A program made the position numbers and the translations under genes. Shown in pieces: positions 1-8,738 of a stretch of DNA of 39,787 nucleotides. The notes under the pieces were generated by a model, which made no database searches, had not been told where the DNA came from, and saw only the letters and a list, made by a program, of their open reading frames with translations. How positions within the stretch are numbered: the first letter of the stretch is position 1; each line of letters opens with the position of its first letter. Origin of the DNA: an uncultured delta proteobacterium (GTDB lineage: Bacteria; Desulfobacterota; Binatia; Bin18); the NCBI GenBank assembly GCA_963733195.1, contig CAVTCR010000048.1, positions 1 through 39,787 of the forward strand. The letters are read 5' to 3'.

Positions 1-13
1 AGTGGGGTAACCG

Positions 14-1144
14 ATGTTGCCGCTGTCGTCATCGCCGATAGCGCGCGTCGTACTCGTTCATCCCTCGCCGCCACTCTTTGAAGTCGCCAACATCGTGCGA
101 GCGTATGGTGCCGCGTTTCAGGCCACGCATACCGTGTCGCACGCGCAAGCCCGCGTCTTACGGGCTATTGCCCACTGCCGCACAGCGGCGCTGGGTGGGC
201 ATGTCGAACACTGTGTGAGCTGCGGGACGGAGCGCGTCTGTTACGACTCGTGTCGCAATCGGCACTGCCCCAAGTGTCAAGGCAGTGCACGGGCCAAGTG
301 GTTAGCGGCGGAGCAGACTTTACTGCTGCCGATTCCCTACTTCCAGGTCGTCTTCACCTTACCCCATCAACTCAATCCCCCCATTCGCGTGAACCAACGG
401 ACCCTCTACGACTTGTTGTTCCAGACAGCCGCCCAGACTTTGCAGGCGTTTGCCCGCGATCCCACACACCTCGGCGCCGAAATTGGGATCACGGCCGTGC
501 TGCACACCTGGGGCCAGACGTTAACTGAGCATGTCCATGTCCACTGCGTGGTCACGGGTGGAGGCCTGAGTTTAGACGGCACGCAGTGGCGCGCGGGTTC
601 GCGTCGCTTTCTGTTTGCCGTCAAAGCCTTGGGCGCAGTCTTCCGGGGCAAGTACCTCGCCGGGTTGGAGCGAGTGCGCCGCCAGCGGCGGCTAACCTTT
701 GCGGGGGCGAGTGCGCCGTTGGCCGAGGAGGTGGCGTGGACCACCTTGCGGCACCAGCTCTACACTAAACCGTGGGTGGTCTACGCCAAGCCGCCGTGGG
801 GCAGTCCCGAGCAAGTGCTGAAGTATCTCAGCCGCTACCCCCATCGTGTGGCGAGTGCCAATTCGCGGCTTGTCTGTGTGGGAGATGGTGTCGTGCGGTT
901 TTGCTATACCGACTACGCCGCTGGAGGGACCGCCAAAGTGATGGCACTCAGGGCGGAGGAGTTTCTGCGCCGCTTTCTCCTCCATGTCGTGCCCACCGGC
1001 TTCGTCCGCATTCGTCACTATGGCTTGCTCGCTAATCGCACGCGGCAGGCCAAGCTTGCCCGTTCCCGCCGGCTCTTGGCCATTGTGGCCGCAACGCCGC
1101 TGCTGCCTACCGCCTCAGTGCTGGCCACGGCCACGGCTCCCTAA
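14..1144 (+). CDS. IS91-family (Y2/HUH rolling-circle) transposase with N-terminal zinc-binding domain; C-terminal tail probably frameshifted, true end about 1233
   Basis: CRTAALGGH..C..C..SCRNRHCPKCQ Zn domain; VLHTWGQTL.EHVHVHC HUH motif; YLSRY two-Tyr motif; FLRRFLLHVVP.GFVRIRHYGLLAN. The HWRRITRLLPQRGHPP* tail continues in another frame to TGA 1231-1233. Confidence 0.9.
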   Translation: MLPLSSSPIARVVLVHPSPPLFEVANIVRAYGAAFQATHTVSHAQARVLRAIAHCRTAALGGHVEHCVSCGTERVCYDSCRNRHCPKCQGSARAKWLAAEQTLLLPIPYFQVVFTLPHQLNPPIRVNQRTLYDLLFQTAAQTLQAFARDPTHLGAEIGITAVLHTWGQTLTEHVHVHCVVTGGGLSLDGTQWRAGSRRFLFAVKALGAVFRGKYLAGLERVRRQRRLTFAGASAPLAEEVAWTTLRHQLYTKPWVVYAKPPWGSPEQVLKYLSRYPHRVASANSRLVCVGDGVVRFCYTDYAAGGTAKVMALRAEEFLRRFLLHVVPTGFVRIRHYGLLANRTRQAKLARSRRLLAIVAATPLLPTASVLATATAP

Positions 1145-1463
1145 CTGACCGCTGCCGCTCCCTGCCCCCCTGTGCTGGCACCCACTGGCGCAGGATTACC
1201 CGCCTCCTGCCACAGCGCGGGCATCCTCCATGATCCCTCACCGAAGCATTCCTCGATGGTGGACACGACAAGCTTCACTGCTCGGAAGTCTCCTCACGCA
1301 GCGAATGGTTCTCGTGTGTCCGCCACCCGGCTTTCCCCTCGGCTCACAACCGTCGGCGGCATCCCTTCCACCACCTTCCCTATCTTTGGTCCCCGCTGGT
1401 CGATTCCGCTGCCTCCTCGCCCTCGCCCTCACCGATAGTATCTCCATTGGCAGCGTGCCCTAG

Positions 1464-3149
1464 CCCGGATTATTCATGAGGATGCAGGACGAAACGGCTC
1501 GCCTCTGCTAAGGTCTGAAGCTGTCAAGACTTTCGGACCAGTCGCAAAGGAGCGAGCCGATGGCAGAGGGTATTGCACAACTCGCACTGAACTTCCATCC
1601 AACCCACCCGATCTCCGTCGCTTTTGATGCGCCGCATATTTCCAGTGATGGCGGTGCGCTGTTACTCCGCCAGATGGATGATCGCCTGGGGCTGAGTGAG
1701 CGGGTGGCAGCTTTGCTGCCCGACGCGCGGGATCCGCGCAAAGTGAAACATGATCGCCACGAGCAAGTTCGGCAGCGGCTCTCCCAGATTGCCCTGGGAT
1801 AGGCAGATTGTAACGATGCGGATCGGTTGCGGCATGACCCCTTACTCAAGCGTGTTTGTGATCGCTCCCCCCAAGCCGAAGGTCGCTCCTCGCAACCGAC
1901 TCTTTCGCGGTTGGAGAACGCGGTGGATGGGCGGACGCTGCGCCTGCTGTTACGCGAGATTGAGGAGCCGTAGGTGAGCTCGTTCACCGCCGCGCCAGAG
2001 GTGATCGTGTTGGCTATTGACTCCACGGATGACCCTACGCATGGCCACCAGCAACTCTCCTTCTTTCCTGGTTACTATGATCACCACAGGTATCACCCGT
2101 TATTGATCGTTGATGGAGAGAGTGGACAAGTGGTGAGGGCGGTGCTGCGACCGGGCAATGTCCATGCGGCGCGCGGCGCGATGGGCATCCGACGACGGAT
2201 TCTTCGTCGCCTCAAGCCGCGCTTTCCTCACGTGCCGATTGTCGTGCGTGGGGATTCCGCGTTTGCTGTCCCGCGTCTGTTGCGGCTGCTGGAGGAGCAG
2301 GGAGCGGGAGCTCGGCGGGATCGCCTACGTCTGTGGGCGGGCGCAGAATGCCGTGCTGCTCCGCGCTGGGGCGGCAGCGTTGACGGAAGCCCGCGCACGC
2401 TTTCAAGCCAGCAAACAGACCGTGCAACACTTCGACGCCTTTGCCTACGCGGCGGAAACCTGGTCGCAGGGCCGCCACGTGGTCATGAAAGCGGAGGTGA
2501 GCGAGCAGGGGGCCAATCCGCGCGTTGTCGTGACTTCGCTTCCAGAGTTCGCTCCCGCGCTACTCTCTCAGGCGTATTGTGAGCGGGGACAGTGCGAGAA
2601 TTTTATTAAAGACTGCAAAAATGCGCTGCAAGCCGATCGCCTCTCGTGCTCCACGTTTGCCGCCAACTTCTTTCGCTTGCTCGAACATGCCACGGCCTAC
2701 GTGCTCTTTCATGCGCTGCGCACCCAGGTGGTCCCCCTAGCGCCGCAACTGGGGCGGGCGCAGTTTGATACCTTGCGACTGCAGTTGTTAAAAGTGGCGG
2801 CGCTGGTCTCGCAGTCGACACGTCGCGTGCTCGTCCGGCTCCCGTTCGCTTTTCCCTTAGCACGGCTCTTCCGCCAATCTCGCGCCGGCCCTCGCGGGGC
2901 GCCCCGTCTTGTCCTCCGCGTAATCTGGGCTCCTCCTCACAGAGAGATGGTCCTCTTTTCGCCCTCGCCTTGGGCATCGGCAGGGAGGAGTTCGTCTGAA
3001 TTCCACTCCTCAAGCCTCAGGGGCCCCGCGTACGTCCTCGTGTTCTTTGTCCCGGACTTCCACTACTCACTTTTCGTTATAATTTGGCCTCTCCTTGTGT
3101 TGCATCACACATCTTCCTCCCTCCGCTCCTTGCTCATGAATAATCCGGG
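1464..3149 (+). mobile_element. IS1380-family insertion sequence, inserted downstream of the IS91 transposase
   Basis: Perfect 17-bp terminal inverted repeats CCCGGATTATTCATGAG (1464-1480) and CTCATGAATAATCCGGG (3133-3149); CTAG target duplication at 1460-1463 and 3150-3153. Confidence 0.9.
1560..2923 (+). pseudogene. IS1380-family DDE transposase, disrupted (end approximate)
   Basis: Fragments FDAPHISSDGGALLL, IDSTDDPTHGHQQLSFF, VRGDSAF, YCERGQCENFIKD.K, TLRLQLLKVAA; in-frame TAG stops at about 1800 and 1970 plus frameshifts. Confidence 0.85.
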
Positions 3150-3200
3150 CTAGACTCGATAGCATCCCCATAGCGCCGACGGTCTGCGGGCCGCGGTTGC

Positions 3201-3290
3201 GTTCAACAGGATTTAAACGCCCTGCCAGACAGGGTAAAGGGCAAGTCTCTTTCTTCGTCCGCAGGGCCGATTAAATCCTTTGCGTTGGGC
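3201..3290 (+). other. attC-like recombination site 1 (90 bp), at the right end of the IS91 element
   Basis: R'' GTTCAAC at 3201 and R' GTTGGGC at 3284; internal arms AGGATTTAA/TTAAATCCT and GCCCTGC/GCAGGGC. The R' flank GTTGGGCGTCATG is the exact reverse complement of CATGACGCCCAAC at the end of the next cassette. Confidence 0.7.
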
Positions 3291-3312
3291 GTCATGAATA
3301 CCTGGTGGCGCT

Positions 3313-3334
3313 AGGTTAGCGAATCTGCTAACCT
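3313..3334. promoter_or_regulatory. Palindromic operator upstream of the toxin-antitoxin operon (probable antitoxin binding site)
   Basis: AGGTTAGC-gaatct-GCTAACCT inverted repeat ending 5 nt before the toxin ATG. Confidence 0.55.
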
Positions 3335-3339
3335 GCACC

Positions 3340-3666
3340 ATGGCGTTCGAGATCGAGTACTTCCACGAGCGCGTGCTCGCCGAGATCGAGTCTTGGCCTG
3401 TCGATGTCCTGGCGGACTACGCCCGCCTTGTCGAGCTTCTTGCTGAGCATGGCCCAAGCCTGAGGCTTCCTCATTCGCGCGCATTCGGGGACGGGCTCTT
3501 CGAGCTTCGTCCTCGTGGTCGCTCCGGTATCGGCAGAGCCTTCTACTGTTTCCTTCTCGGCCGCCGCATCGTGGTGTTGCATGCGTTCATCAAGAAGACA
3601 CAGCAGACGCCAGATCGTGAACTGAAGCTGGCGCGCAAACGCCAGAAGGAGCTGCAAGATGGCTGA
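3340..3666 (+). CDS. higB: HigB/RelE-ParE superfamily toxin (Gp49-like)
   Basis: GPSLRLPHSRAFGDGLFELR..GRAFYCF...RIVVLHAFIKKTQQTP; toxin-first order, overlapping the HTH gene. Confidence 0.9.
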   Translation: MAFEIEYFHERVLAEIESWPVDVLADYARLVELLAEHGPSLRLPHSRAFGDGLFELRPRGRSGIGRAFYCFLLGRRIVVLHAFIKKTQQTPDRELKLARKRQKELQDG

Positions 3667-3976
3667 ACTCAAGTACAGGCCTGTCCGTCACGACCATGCT
3701 GCGTTCCTCGCCAAGGCCAAGGCCCGCAAGGGATTTGCCGAGGCCTACGAGTCCCTGGATCTTGAGTACCAAGTCGCGAGCCAGATGCTCACGGCGAGAG
3801 CCCGGGCGGGGCTCACTCAAGATGCTGTAGCCGAGCGTATGGGTACCACGAAGAGCGCTATTTCGCGCCTCGAGGCAGCGGGCAAGCACACGCCTTCTCT
3901 TGCCACACTGAAGAGGTATGCCCAGGCTGTCGGCTGCGAGTTGCAGGTCAAGTTGGTTCCGCAGAAGGCGGCATGA
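3659..3976 (+). CDS. higA: HigA-like XRE helix-turn-helix antitoxin
   Basis: ARARAGLTQDAVAERMGTTKSAISRLE..PSLATLKRYA; overlaps the toxin stop codon. Confidence 0.9.
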   Translation: MAELKYRPVRHDHAAFLAKAKARKGFAEAYESLDLEYQVASQMLTARARAGLTQDAVAERMGTTKSAISRLEAAGKHTPSLATLKRYAQAVGCELQVKLVPQKAA

Positions 3977-3977
3977 C

Positions 3978-4037
3978 GCCCAACCCGTCGCTCAAGCGGA
4001 CGCGCCTCCGGCGTGCCGCTTAGCTCAAACGTTAGCC
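3978..4037 (+). other. attC site 2 (60 bp)
   Basis: GCCCAAC...CTCAAGCGGACGCGCCTCCGGCGTGCCGCTTAGCTCAAAC-GTTAGCC: classical short attC directly after the higA stop. Confidence 0.9.
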
Positions 4038-4081: not shown

Positions 4082-4426
4082 ATGCGATTACCTAATGGCA
4101 AGCATGCTATCGTTGATCTCCGGAAGTTGCGCGATTATTGCTTGAATCCCGATAGTACTAGAGGTAGACACAAAGCACGAGTCTTTGCTGCGGCTCTCGG
4201 CATCACAGCGGCAGAGGCTTCGCAACTACGAGCAAAATTACTAGAGGCAGCACGAACCGCGGAAGCGCAACGTGGCGAGCTTGACCTGTATGGGCAACGA
4301 TACACAATTGATTTCGAGCTGGAATCACAAGTCGGCAAAGCCACTGTGCGGAGCGGGTGGATCATCTTACATGGCAAGACCGTGCCACGGTTGACGACGT
4401 GTTACATCAAGAAAAGGAAACGATAA
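4082..4426 (+). CDS. DUF6883-like protein (putative toxin), cassette-borne copy 1
   Basis: AIVDLRKLRDYCLNP...GRHKARVF...YGQRY..DF...VRSGWII....PRLTTCY pattern. Confidence 0.75.
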   Translation: MRLPNGKHAIVDLRKLRDYCLNPDSTRGRHKARVFAAALGITAAEASQLRAKLLEAARTAEAQRGELDLYGQRYTIDFELESQVGKATVRSGWIILHGKTVPRLTTCYIKKRKR

Positions 4427-4656
4427 TGCCGAAGCGAAAGATTAAATTGCTGGAGACCGTAGCCTTGCTTGAGGACTTGGCGGAGCGCAAGCTCAAGCGA
4501 GGTGAAGTTGGCACCGTGGTGGAGGTCCTCGCACCAGATGTATACGAGGTGGAATTCTGTGATGAGGAGGGGCAGACCTACGCGGAGCTAGCGCTGCGGA
4601 GTGAGCAACTTATACCGCTGCACAATCAAGGTGAGGCATTGAAGATTGTTGCTTAA
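4426..4656 (+). CDS. DUF4926-like protein (putative immunity/antitoxin), copy 1
   Basis: IKLLETVALLEDL..RGEVGTVVEVL..DVYEVEFCDEEGQTYA; TAATG stop/start overlap with the upstream gene. Confidence 0.8.
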   Translation: MPKRKIKLLETVALLEDLAERKLKRGEVGTVVEVLAPDVYEVEFCDEEGQTYAELALRSEQLIPLHNQGEALKIVA

Positions 4657-4675: not shown

Positions 4676-4771
4676 GGCTAACTAGGCGCACCACCGCATC
4701 GCTGCCCGGTTGCGGTTCGGGATAAATCTGAAAGGGCGCGGTTGGGCGGCTCGCGGTGCGCTTGAGCGTTA
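4676..4771 (+). other. attC site 3, with R' box split by group II intron 1
   Basis: R''-side GGCTAAC; ACACGGCTAAC is the reverse complement of the cassette start GTTAGCCGTGT (4031). Arms GCGCACC/GGTGCGC. GTTA (4768-4771) plus post-intron GGT gives GTTAGGT. Confidence 0.85.
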
Positions 4772-5539
4772 GTGCGCCAAGCGAAGCTTGGCGCTTCTTG
4801 TGGGGTGCAAGTCCCCACTGAGTAAGGTCTAACCAACCACTCATACCGAGTGTTGCAACTGTGGAGGAAGCAGTGACGTAGAGCCGAACGAGACAGTTGA
4901 AGCGTACACAGGGAACCACGTAGCCCGCAGGGGAGACCGCACTGCCCAAAGCTTGAGACAGCCTCGTCACAAGGAGAATGCAGATGGCGATGGTATTAAC
5001 GCGCCAGAAGCCAAGACAGAGGGATCGTTTTTTTTGGTGAGATCTCCGAGGATCTGCCGGGGTCCACAAAGAGCGTGGGAGGCGTGGAGAGAAGCGTCAG
5101 GAACTTGGGAGACCCTGTGGGTTCCAACTTGCAGGGACGCCTTGGGTATGGGATACGGATACTGAGCCACGCATTGGGGAAACCCTCGATACACGGTAGG
5201 CCGGACCCTAACCCCAGGAGGAAGAGCAAGTCGGTAGGCCAAAGCAACCACATGGAGCCAGGTCGATACCCGGCAGGGAGTCGGATCACCTCATAGTACT
5301 CGGCGGGCGGGAGAGCCGTCCACGGGGGGAAGGGGGTGACGGTGGGACGGAGCCTTCATAGGGAACTTGTGCCGGACATGCAGGGCCGGACTATCGCAAG
5401 CCAACCTCCCTGAAGGGAATAGCAATGTCCGGGGTAACCTGGATTGCGGAAGCGAGTCTCACTGAGGAGCCCGGTGCGGGAAAACCGCACGCCGGGATCT
5501 GTGCGGGGGGCGTCGGGTAACCGGCGTCCCTACCGCGAC
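4772..5539 (+). mobile_element. Group II intron 1, ORF-less (768 nt; IEP deleted), probably bacterial class E-like
   Basis: 5' GTGCG; domain V/VI GAGCCCGGTGCGGGAAAACCGCACGCCGGGATCTG...CCCTACCGCGAC ending in AY; EBS1 loop TAACGC (4997-5002) pairs with exon GCGTTA. Only a KPTSLKGIA-like IEP start remains. Confidence 0.88.
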
Positions 5540-5849: not shown

Positions 5850-6912
5850 TAAGCACCTAGGGATAAATTTTGTGGTATAAGGGCGTCTATGAAAACGCCG
5901 ACGAAATTTGTGAAGCCGCTGACCACAGCCCAGCGGGACCAACTGCAAGCGATTATGAAATCCACCGCTCCTCAGCGCACGCGCATGCGGGCGCATGCGG
6001 TGCTGCTCAGTGAACGACGGTATTCGCTCGATCAAATCGCGGACATCTATCAAGTGGATCGGGATCGGGTGAGCCAGTGGCTGGAGTGGTGGGAAGCCGA
6101 ACACCTGGAGGGGCTGGACGATGAGCCGCGCAGTGGCCGGCCGCCCAAGCTCACGGAAGCCGAGCGTCAAGACGCGCTGAGAATTACCTTGCAGGAACCC
6201 CGCTCGATCAAGACGGGGTTGAAGCGCATTGCGGACGAAGTGGGGAAACTCCTGAGTGGGGAGACCCTGCGCACGCTGCTCAATACGGAGGGCTACGTTT
6301 GGAAGCGGATGCGGCGCAGTAGCCGGGCGCGGCGCGATGAAGCGGAGTTTCGCGCGGCCGAGGCGGAGCTCGCGCAGCTGCGCGCCAGTGCCCTGGCTGG
6401 GACAAGCCCGTTTGACTTGTGGTACTACGATGAAGCCGGGTTTACCTTGCAGCCCGCTATTCCGTATGCCTGGCAACGGGTTGGGCAGCGCCTGGAGTTG
6501 GCGTCGAGCCATGGCCCACGCCAAAACATCCTGGGCTTCTTCAATCTGCACAATCAGTTCCTCTCCTTTGCTTTTCAAGGATCCATCGATTCTCACACCG
6601 TCATCCACTGTTTTGAGCTGTTCCGTCAGCAACAACAAAAGCCCGCGCTGGTGGTCGTCGATAACGCCCCCATCCATACCAGTGACGACTTTGAAGACGA
6701 ACTCGAACGCTGGCAAAAAGAAGACCTCTACGTGCAGTTTCTTCCCCCCTACTGTCCAGAACTCAACCTCATCGAAATTCTCTGGCGCAAGATCAAATAC
6801 GAGTGGTTACCCTTAGATGCCTATCAGAATTTCAAAACCCTGACCGCTGCGCTCTTCGCCGTCCTCAAAGGGATCGGCTCAAAATACCGCATTACTTTTG
6901 CCTAGGTGCTTA
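5850..6912 (+). mobile_element. IS630-family insertion sequence (coordinates include flanking TA dinucleotides)
   Basis: Terminal inverted repeats TAAGCACCTAGG / CCTAGGTGCTTA with TA duplication; interrupts the GFA gene. Confidence 0.9.
5889..6905 (+). CDS. IS630-family transposase, intact
   Basis: N-terminal HTH (GLDDEPRSGRPPKL); DDE triad YYDEAGF / VVDNAPIH / PPYCPELNLIE. Confidence 0.93.
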   Translation: MKTPTKFVKPLTTAQRDQLQAIMKSTAPQRTRMRAHAVLLSERRYSLDQIADIYQVDRDRVSQWLEWWEAEHLEGLDDEPRSGRPPKLTEAERQDALRITLQEPRSIKTGLKRIADEVGKLLSGETLRTLLNTEGYVWKRMRRSSRARRDEAEFRAAEAELAQLRASALAGTSPFDLWYYDEAGFTLQPAIPYAWQRVGQRLELASSHGPRQNILGFFNLHNQFLSFAFQGSIDSHTVIHCFELFRQQQQKPALVVVDNAPIHTSDDFEDELERWQKEDLYVQFLPPYCPELNLIEILWRKIKYEWLPLDAYQNFKTLTAALFAVLKGIGSKYRITFA

Positions 6913-7840: not shown

Positions 7841-7935
7841 AGCTAACCATGCGCTGCACCGCATCGCCGTCCGGTTGCGCTTCTGGAGAAGCTGAAAGGT
7901 CTCGCTTGGGCGGCAAACGGTGACTGGGACCGTTA
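7841..7935 (+). other. attC site 4, with R' box split by group II intron 2
   Basis: R''-side AGCTAAC; sequence homologous to attC3 (CACCGCATCGC..CCGGTTGCG..CTGAAAGG..TTGGGCGGC..CGGTG). GTTA plus post-intron GAC gives GTTAGAC. Confidence 0.82.
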
Positions 7936-8738
7936 GTGCGCCAAGCGAAGCTTGGCGCTTCTTGTGGGGTGCAAGTCCCCACTGAGTAAGGTCTAACCAC
8001 CTACTCATACCGAGTGTTGCAACTGTGGAGGAGGCGCCAATGTAGAGCCAAACGACACAGGTGAAGCGTACACAGGGAACCACGTAGCCCGTAGGGGAGT
8101 CCGCACTGCCCAAAGCTTGAGACAGCCTCGTCACAAGGAGAATGCAGATGGCGATGGTATTAACGCGCCAGAAGCTAATACAGAGAGATCGTTTTTTTGG
8201 TGAGATCTCCGAGGATCTGCCGGGGTCCACAAAGAGCGTGGGATGCGTGGAGAGAAGCGTCAGGAACTTGGGAGACCTGTCGGGTTCCGCCTGAGGGAAA
8301 GCCGTGGCGCACGGCGCGTGCGAAGCTACGGGCGTCCCTGCAGCGCTTCACCCAGTGGTGTCGGGAGAATCGCCATCGGCGGCTCAGCGAGCTGTTCAAG
8401 CAGTTAAACGGCAAACTCCGAGGGTATTACAACTACTATGGAGTGCACGGGAACAGCACGAGCCTCCAGCAATTCTTCGACGGCGTGGTACGTAGGCTCT
8501 GAAGTGGCTCAATCGGCGGAGCCAACGGCCCAGCTATACCTGGCAGGGCTTCAAGACTCTCCTGACGCACTTCAAGATTGAGCGGCCACGGATTGTGGGG
8601 TATCCAAAGATGAGAAAGGCAACTGCAATGGCTTGAGCTGGAATGCGGAAGCGAGGAGGGCTGAAGAGCCCGGTGCGGGAAAACCGCACGCCGGGATCTG
8701 GGCGGGGGCCGCTGGGTAACTGGCGGTCCTACCGCGAT
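7936..8738 (+). mobile_element. Group II intron 2 (803 nt), internally deleted relative of intron 1
   Basis: First ~350 nt closely match intron 1; EBS1 TAACGC at 8161-8166. It jumps at about 8290 into the maturase C-terminus; domain V/VI at about 8665-8738 ends CCGCGAT. Confidence 0.88.
8290..8636 (+). pseudogene. Remnant of the group II intron-encoded protein (maturase/X domain only, no RT domain)
   Basis: RTARAKLRASLQRFTQWCRENRH...LNGKLRGYYNYYGVHGN, then LKWLNRRSQRPSYTW in a shifted frame. Confidence 0.8.

Follow-up and report, generated by a model that had tools for sequence, protein, structure and literature searches.

An IS91-family element with an upstream tyrosine recombinase and an attC-like right end lies as a cassette in an integron array of an uncultured Binatia bacterium

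Insertion sequences (IS) of the IS91 family, e.g. IS91, IS801 and IS1294, encode a Y2 HUH transposase with a zinc-binding N-terminus and have asymmetric palindromic ends with GTTC words and no evident target duplication. Some members of the family listed in ISfinder, such as ISShvi3 and ISWz1, have an extra integrase gene upstream. An integron cassette is small and typically consists of one promoterless gene and an attC site, without mobility genes; the textbook attC folds with an extrahelical G and T of the bottom strand and a central spacer that is unpaired on both arms. ISCR1, an IS91-related element, sits beyond the 3′ conserved segment of class 1 integrons, and we know of no recombinase and no attC-like end in it, nor of its placement at attC core sites. 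In phage CTX, a rolling-circle initiator works together with host Xer recombinases, which act on a folded single strand and target dif. Here we describe an element that is related to all of these, at the start of a 39,787-nucleotide (nt) stretch of DNA (contig CAVTCR010000048.1 of assembly GCA_963733195.1; hereafter the window) from an uncultured delta proteobacterium (GTDB lineage Desulfobacterota, Binatia, Bin18). Positions 1–3290 of the window are a dead copy, reduced to its right two-thirds, of an IS91-family insertion sequence with two genes and a full length of ~ 2.6 kb, and the right end of this element is an attC-like hairpin. Our full-text literature search found no description of such an end structure or of the target rule; one passing remark on this kind of element is in PMC9229058.

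The element shares with IS91, IS801 and IS1294 the transposase type, the asymmetric palindromic ends, the GTTC words at the ends and the lack of an evident target duplication. Unlike these elements, it has a tyrosine recombinase gene upstream of the transposase gene, it terminates on the right in a long hairpin with bulges, framed by attC-like boxes, and it targets a long structured site (here, an attC core) rather than a tetranucleotide. With integron cassettes it has in common the RYYYAAC and GTTRRRY boxes, first bases that complement its own inverse core, a G^TT boundary (the caret marks the junction) and a 90-nt imperfect hairpin that is in register and co-oriented with its neighbours. It differs from them in its two mobility genes, its inverted repeats, its several copies per genome and its length of 2.6 kb. 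Moreover, its hairpin bulges are on the other arm, the central spacer is 0/4 nt instead of 5/5–6 nt, the 3′ arm is conserved as sequence, and the family thrives without IntI. Like ISCR1 in complex class 1 integrons, it is an IS91-related element physically linked to integrons. The attC-targeting IS1111-attC group and the group IIC-attC introns, both mentioned in PMC9229058, resemble our element in their fixed position and orientation at array attC sites, whereas they use a DEDD transposase, or a ribozyme with a reverse transcriptase, instead of an HUH enzyme and a tyrosine recombinase. Because the element brings its own attC-like site, the array stays formally intact.

The extent of the mobile unit was read from its other copies. 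The genome of the window holds three further copies or remnants, located on contigs C66, C15 and C77; the copy on C66 (2616 bp) was used as the reference. After a secondary IS1380-family insertion had been excised in silico from the window copy, homology to all three paralogs reached position 3290 and stopped there, with unrelated flanks beyond, and the hairpin therefore belongs to the repeated element. The initial annotation of the window, made from the sequence alone, had proposed the hairpin as the right end of an IS91-family element and had named homologues ending before position 3201 as an observation that would speak against it; the homologues continue to 3290, and 12 copies could be aligned through the hairpin. 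The C47 remnant also consists of the hairpin with adjoining element DNA. A search of 41 related genomes with the C66 reference gave matches in 15 of them (the window's genome included), and three of these contained complete or almost complete copies. Thirteen right ends were constant up to ...TTAAATCCTTnnCG, and in 12 of these the next two bases were TT. The bases that follow the constant part vary (TTGGGC, TTGGCC, TTAGGC, TTAGGT, TTAGAT, TTAGGA, TTAGCT, TTCAAG and one aberrant form), which places the boundary between element and neighbour inside GTT, or at G3284^T3285 when read in the integron manner. The left end of the window copy falls beyond the contig; all six left ends that could be read elsewhere start with GTTGAAC(G/T)AAACCGC behind unrelated DNA, and the GTTGAAC-like left junction foreseen by the initial annotation is thus present in each. 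The mobile unit includes the hairpin and has its junctions in (C)G^TT. We also observed a ~ 2.4-kb insertion within the recombinase gene of the C15 copy (G000:C15:772-3206, where G000 is the window's genome), whereas the C77 copy is an internal-deletion derivative.

Alternatively, the hairpin could be target DNA, i.e. a resident attC whose inverse core was entered by the insertion sequence at AA^C, so that the IS proper would end at about position 3206. The GTTC^AAC at 3201–3207 follows a small palindrome, as at the terminating end of IS801 and IS1294, and one solo hairpin of the same type exists in a relative. We consider this reading very improbable, since the hairpin is conserved with every copy of the element, and two sets of near-identical copies (10 and 5, in the genomes G041 and G042 described below) diverge only past it. 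Furthermore, a search of the whole genome of the window with the 90-nt hairpin found no solo hairpin without element DNA, and the same 3′-arm motif occurs across phyla.

In the window copy, the open reading frame at 14–1144 matched Zn_Tnp_IS91 (PF14319) and Y2_Tnp (PF04986) in the Pfam search and scored 404 bits against NF033538 (cut-off 125 bits), over model positions 1–323 of 356; an intact copy reached 437 bits. By inspection, the transposase alignment (A1) shows no variation in the HVHVH and YLSRY stretches. Compared to the C66 copy, the gene is broken by a premature TAA at 1142–1144 and then by a 1-nt deletion, leaving 376 residues versus 405–408 in intact copies, the C-terminus of which carries a CPxC motif. 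At the left edge, the order of TAA (8–10), CCG and ATG is that of the C66 copy, in which a recombinase stop codon and CCG precede the transposase ATG; owing to this alignment, the TAA suspected earlier of ending an upstream gene could be identified as the stop codon of the tyrosine recombinase. Base 1 of the window is the first base of the contig, hence the left part of this copy cannot be read in the assembly; the missing recombinase gene was sought at the other contig ends of the genome and was not found there. The IS1380-family insertion in the 3′ non-coding region has 17-nt inverted repeats, a transposase gene split in three fragments and a CTAG target duplication at 1460–1463 and 3150–3153, and the paralogs run uninterrupted through its insertion site. 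The spacer between the transposase gene and the hairpin, given previously as about 280 bp without the IS1380 insertion, is really ~ 362 nt from the actual stop codon and ~ 266 nt from the expected end of a full-length gene.

The flanks of the copies show how the element is placed within arrays of cassettes. A match to the array-type attC of the window (4676–4774), at 75–86% identity, was present in three of the six left flanks, each of which ends with L′, a spacer and G directly before TTGAAC; the other three contain no recognisable array attC. On the right side, the bases that follow the element are complementary to the inverse core of the next cassette in the window (13 nt) and at loci L017 and L023 of related genomes, and less securely on C77 and C15. 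At L017 and L023, the complementary bases are followed by array-type attC sequence, and in all five cases the element is co-oriented with the cassettes. In the window, the 13 bases at 3284–3296 (GTTGGGCGTCATG) are the exact complement of 3972–3984 (CATGACGCCCAAC). This complementarity of R′ with the far end of the toxin-antitoxin cassette had been pointed out before and was confirmed. We rejected it as a special feature, as it is the ordinary signature of a cassette, the first bases of which pair with its own inverse core. The element itself follows the same register, given that its inverse core complements its own left end in six of six copies and the next cassette is in register. In view of the attC left flanks, the in-register right cassettes and the shared orientation, the element in the window's lineage lies exactly as a cassette, i.e. 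after the G of an attC core and before the TTRRRY of the next cassette. The in-register placement put forward in the initial annotation is thus borne out by three left flanks and five downstream cassettes.

Such a placement raises the possibility that the element is a passive cassette, a two-gene unit with its own attC moved by the host IntI, with its own enzymes uninvolved in the junctions. The boundaries are exactly of the cassette type (G^TTGAAC, the complementary inverse core GTTCAAC and G^TTRRRY), and the neighbours are attC sites and in-register cassettes. The enzyme is also available, because the window's genome encodes one intact IntI (477 bits) in addition to fragments, and true IntI proteins, from one to several, occur in four of the five relatives that carry the element. 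On the other hand, the element is multi-copy, with four copies or remnants in the window's genome, and half of the readable left flanks show no array attC. The structure of the hairpin and the distribution of the family, presented below, also disagree with this explanation, and we regard it as unlikely.

The 90-nt hairpin GTTCAAC...GTTGGGC, as originally delimited, was found at 3201–3290 and folds on both strands. The top strand has a folding energy of − 20.8 kcal/mol (z = − 3.2), which was equalled by one of 200 shuffled sequences, and the minus strand has z = − 2.95. The R″-like box GTTCAAC (3201–3207) agrees with RYYYAAC, the R′ box GTTGGGC with GTTRRRY, and the length of the imperfect hairpin is within the 55–140 nt or so expected of an attC. 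A strict attC regular expression matched only three places in the window, one of them the hairpin; we dropped it as a detector, as it overlooked both clear attC sites in the neighbourhood.

Other properties deviate from those of attC sites. In the 5′ arm, GTTCAAC leads directly into the stem, with a central spacer of 0 nt, whereas the 3′ arm contains a 4-nt bulge (TTGC) and a single-base bulge. The hairpin thus has neither a spacer that is unpaired on two arms nor extrahelical bases on the R″-L″ arm. By inspection, the extra bases of the two neighbouring attC sites (3978–4037 and 4676–4774) are on the 5′ arm, opposite to those of the hairpin and in agreement with the extrahelical G and T on the bottom strand of the textbook attC. 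All 12 aligned copies have an identical 3′ arm (GGATTAAATCCTT), whereas the 5′ arm drifts, which points to the 3′ arm as a candidate protein-binding sequence. In attC sites, the structure rather than the sequence is conserved; here, the sequence of one arm is, and motifs related to it recur across phyla. Although its boxes, length and register agree with those of a canonical attC, the hairpin is not one, given the side of its bulges and its conserved 3′ arm, and the same two features argue against a cassette that is carried by IntI.

In both paralogs that retain the left part, a tyrosine recombinase gene (Phage_int_SAM_4 and Phage_integrase domains) is located directly upstream of the transposase gene. 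The initial annotation had anticipated such a gene, with or without the IntI-specific insert, and the insert is lacking. The protein has 283–302 residues in the intact copies of relatives, which keep the catalytic residues in both genes. It scored 162–188 bits against XerA (cut-off 220 bits) and 134–159 bits against XerD, all below the curated cut-offs. Against the IntI model TIGR02249, it reached 155–170 bits in two stretches, with a cut-off of 265 bits. When aligned with the genome's IntI (alignment A2), the recombinase was without two IntI segments of ~ 26 and ~ 12 residues, which form the integron-specific insert, whereas the columns of the catalytic Arg, His-x-x-Arg, His and Tyr were invariant. 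The enzyme is thus Xer-like and not an IntI.

The recombinase also bears on the proposal, made in the initial annotation, that the element is a platform that nucleated the array, i.e. an integron-like integrase with a primary site. It is true that a tyrosine recombinase from the Xer/IntI neighbourhood heads the visible part of the array. However, this recombinase has no IntI insert and stays far from the IntI cut-off, no attI was seen, the window copy is decayed, other copies have cassettes or attC sites on both sides, and whatever lies upstream is hidden by the contig end. Moreover, the attC types of the array have no relation to the hairpin and are frequent in other parts of the genome; the 99-nt array-type attC alone gave ~ 44 BLAST matches on 24 contigs, with cassette arrays or attC clusters scattered through the genome. 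We give the platform proposal almost no credence. As a separate observation, the genome contains a distant second IS91-like transposase (37–39% identity; G000:C1:39325-40977 and G000:C41:9643-10938), adjoined by fragments that score 148 and 89 bits against the C-terminal part of the IntI model. This locus type may represent another recombinase-plus-IS91 family, closer to IntI.

To place the element in a wider context, we scanned one genome per species for relatives of the transposase; 594 of the pattern matches proved to be such relatives, and 79 loci were retained. The hosts include Acidobacteriota, Alphaproteobacteria, Planctomycetota, Nitrospirota, Clostridia, Bacteroidia, Spirochaetota and others. 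The distant relatives share ~ 45–57% identity, and many are on contigs of ~ 2.5 kb. The recombinase gene is directly upstream in 74 of the 79 loci. In two of the remaining five, the transposase gene starts at most 180 bases from the contig start, which leaves no room for it. Pairs of identical copies gave sharp ends, with unit lengths of 2511, 2530 and 2603 bp. The acidobacterial type reads (C)CGTTTGAAC ... GTTCAAACGG, hairpin, CACTAACGT, i.e. the same plan in other letters. Terminal inverted repeats of 14–28 nt extend the GTTCAAC/GTTGAAC pairing. Under a strict automatic end test (an inverted repeat with at least 12 of 14 bases, followed immediately by a helix of at least 6 bp), 22 of 58 loci passed. 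These 22 contain 19 different basal helices, meaning that the pairing is kept while the sequence changes, and in 14 of them GTT occurs within 14 nt past the hairpin. One plasmid deserves a separate mention. The 4862-bp circular plasmid NZ_CP155766.1 of Sphingomonas parapaucimobilis (L145) has as its listed genes a site-specific integrase and an IS91 transposase of this family; we rejected its interpretation as a dimer of the element, because it contains one copy and another, unannotated open reading frame of 450 residues.

The family does not depend on integrons. Among five genomes with distant members, IntI scored above the cut-off in one, and the other four, which are without it, contain from 3 to ~ 20 copies of the element recombinase with identical scores. 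Since the family multiplies in the absence of IntI, its mobility is autonomous and IntI is not needed. This multiplication of the same architecture in four of five genomes speaks against transport by a host integrase.

The target choice was read in two genomes with near-identical copies. In G041, 10 copies are at least 99.9% identical, with sharp ends that include the hairpin, and their flanks diverge only past it; in G042, five identical copies, with ends of the same kind, have the junction GG-CGT-TT in common. All 10 insertions in G041 are within one palindromic motif of ~ 23–30 nt, the left arm of which resembles the 3′ arm of the element. Unoccupied copies of this motif numbered 18, compared to 0 for the reversed control pattern. 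The short core common to both ends co-varies by clade, being GTT here, CGT(TT) in Acidobacteriota and GACTT in another clade. The targets are therefore attC cores in the window's lineage and a ~ 23–30-nt motif in G041, and not a bare tetranucleotide such as the CTTG, GTTC or GTCC of the IS91 family. We also observed that the free motifs in G041 (loci L133–L144) are inside a ~ 100-nt repeat with two hairpins, and that some copies of the motif are 650–1400 bp apart, as in a cassette array, although this genome is free of IntI.

These targets have to be weighed against a purely IS91-like, rolling-circle explanation, in which the transposase alone cuts one strand after a CGTT-like word at both ends, the hairpin is a subterminal palindrome, and the recombinase is an accessory that serves, e.g., in multimer resolution or target choice. 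The transposase is a clear member of the IS91 family, and no target duplication was seen past the shared core. In each clade, the word that precedes the left end (NGTT or NCGT) matches the last bases of the element (CGTT or ACGT). According to PMC13181058, IS91-family elements have subterminal palindromes and a target word that resembles the terminal word. Nevertheless, the targets observed here extend far beyond a tetranucleotide, with conserved sequence to either side of the insertion, and the recombinase is kept in nearly all loci, its catalytic residues included. The order of the genes relative to the hairpin end is also reversed, given that the IS91 terminating end is upstream of the transposase gene, and the known target words have T in the second position, both as described in PMC13181058. 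We judge this explanation rather improbable.

We lean, though only slightly, towards a reading in which the element's own recombinase makes the junctions through an attC-like site formed by the joined ends, while the HUH transposase supplies rolling-circle copies. The element would move as a unit and insert site-specifically, with the crossover in (C)G^TT. When the ends are joined, the left GTTGAAC would pair with the right GTTCAAC and, together with the hairpin, would fold into an attC-like site. The recombinase of the element would most likely exchange strands between this site and an attC core site or, in other lineages, another repeated palindrome serving as the partner. The HUH transposase would most likely provide the copies, perhaps as single-stranded circles, by rolling-circle replication. 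The extended motif in G041 and the core that both ends share in each clade are what is expected of a site-specific recombinase. The proposed combination of a rolling-circle HUH protein with a Xer-type recombinase at a single-strand hairpin resembles phage CTX, with the difference that our recombinase is element-borne and that single-stranded intermediates belong here to the model only. A two-enzyme transposon, in which the HUH enzyme peels off single strands, the joined ends mimic an attC, and an AD-less Xer-like recombinase performs the insertion at the G^TT of attC sites or other repeated hairpins, is possible, and we propose it tentatively.

Several observations weigh against the recombinase-based reading. 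The junction sequences are explained equally well by transposase cleavage after a CGTT-type tetranucleotide, and GTTC, the classic cleavage word of the IS91 family, occurs in both inverted repeats, on opposite strands; these words are 3 nt and ~ 90 nt inside the actual ends of the unit, and palindromes lie beside both of them. In the window's lineage, the host IntI may be the enzyme that makes the junctions. The covariation within the window's own clade is weak, with compensatory changes in 4 of 18 pairs, and 36 of the 58 loci failed the strict hairpin test; some of these failures come from crude end-finding and some loci may truly differ, while many show the structure by eye. None of the four copies in the window's genome is intact, which allows no statement on activity there. 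The solo hairpin in a relative (L026; G010:C66, ~ 860–970, minus strand) has the same invariant 3′ arm and a GTTAGGT core, but the 1.5 kb upstream of it contain neither a recombinase nor a transposase gene. Finally, the comparison of contigs from four metagenome runs (two studies) with an acidobacterial copy (L098:2421-5131) detected no circle or end-to-end joint, although contigs cannot show rare forms; the contigs stop at the element ends. With respect to L026, we also noted GTTGCAG-TTCT-CTGCAAC immediately before the hairpin, which resembles a left element end fused to a right one, and the locus may be a miniature derivative of the element.

The self-mobilising cassette suggested in the initial annotation can thus be accepted in part. 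The anatomy fits and the family multiplies without IntI, whereas the enzyme acting at the junctions is a matter of inference. The main idea, an IS91-type element with an attC-like end, was largely right, and the mechanism proposed for it is a testable one.

The features of the window copy and its neighbours are listed in Table 1, together with the plan of a complete copy. Downstream of the toxin-antitoxin cassette, the next cassette (4082–4656) encodes DUF6883 and DUF4926 proteins that overlap and may constitute a further two-gene module. Two group II introns (RF02005 and RF00029) without open reading frames are located at 4808–5539 and 7972–8738. Each starts ~ 30 nt past an array-type attC (4676–4774 and 7842–7938) and is in the orientation of the cassettes; attC-associated introns are usually in the opposite orientation, as stated in PMC9229058. 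An intact-looking IS630-family transposase gene (NF033545, 211 bits) at 5889–6905 separates the first intron from the following cassettes.

Table 1. Features of the IS91-family element copy and adjoining cassettes in the window, and the plan of a complete copy.
Feature	Position	Strand	Basis or remark
3′ end of recombinase gene, including TAA 8–10	1–10	+	Alignment to C66; paralogs with Phage_int_SAM_4 and Phage_integrase
IS91-family Y2 HUH transposase gene, truncated	14–1144	+	Pfam, NF033538, alignment A1
Out-of-frame remnant of transposase C-terminus	1145–1233	+	Premature TAA 1142–1144 and 1-nt deletion relative to C66
Degenerate IS1380-family insertion in 3′ non-coding region of the element	1464–3149	+	NF033539 and PF13701 fragments
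Right inverted repeat, GCGGTTGC-GTTCAAC	3193–3207	+	Complement of the family left end GTTGAAC-GAAACCGC
attC-like hairpin, conserved right end of the element	3201–3290	+	Folds; present in all paralogs and 12 aligned copies
R′ box GTTGGGC	3284–3290	+	Bases after GTT vary between copies, preceding bases constant
Toxin-antitoxin cassette	3285–4037	+	Gp49/HigB-like 3340–3666, helix-turn-helix antitoxin 3659–3976 (Pfam)
60-nt attC of toxin-antitoxin cassette	3978–4037	+	13-nt complementarity of start and end
Array-type attC (attC2) of the next cassette (DUF6883 and DUF4926)	4676–4774	+	Type found left of other copies
Complete copy, left part			G^TTGAAC-GAAACCGC left inverted repeat, Xer-like recombinase, Y2 HUH transposase
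Complete copy, right part			~ 270-nt spacer, GCGGTTxC-GTTCAAC, bulged hairpin of 85–115 nt, TTTGCG^TT

The copy in the window is a dead relic, and the meaning of the finding lies with the family. IS1111-type insertion sequences and group IIC introns are the known attC parasites of cassette arrays. The element would add a third type to these, one that differs in chemistry and imitates the attC site rather than interrupting it. The finding also offers a testable role for the integrase gene of some IS91-family members, as well as a natural setting where an enzyme of rolling-circle replication and a tyrosine recombinase may both act on one folded single-stranded substrate. If the two-enzyme model is true, the element would be a self-propelled cassette that adds an attC-like site to the array with each landing, and new attC sites, or cassette arrays in genomes free of IntI, could originate from it. 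Given the breadth of the family, with 594 relatives and up to ~ 20 copies per genome, such elements may shape cassette arrays and similar hairpin repeats in many environmental bacteria.

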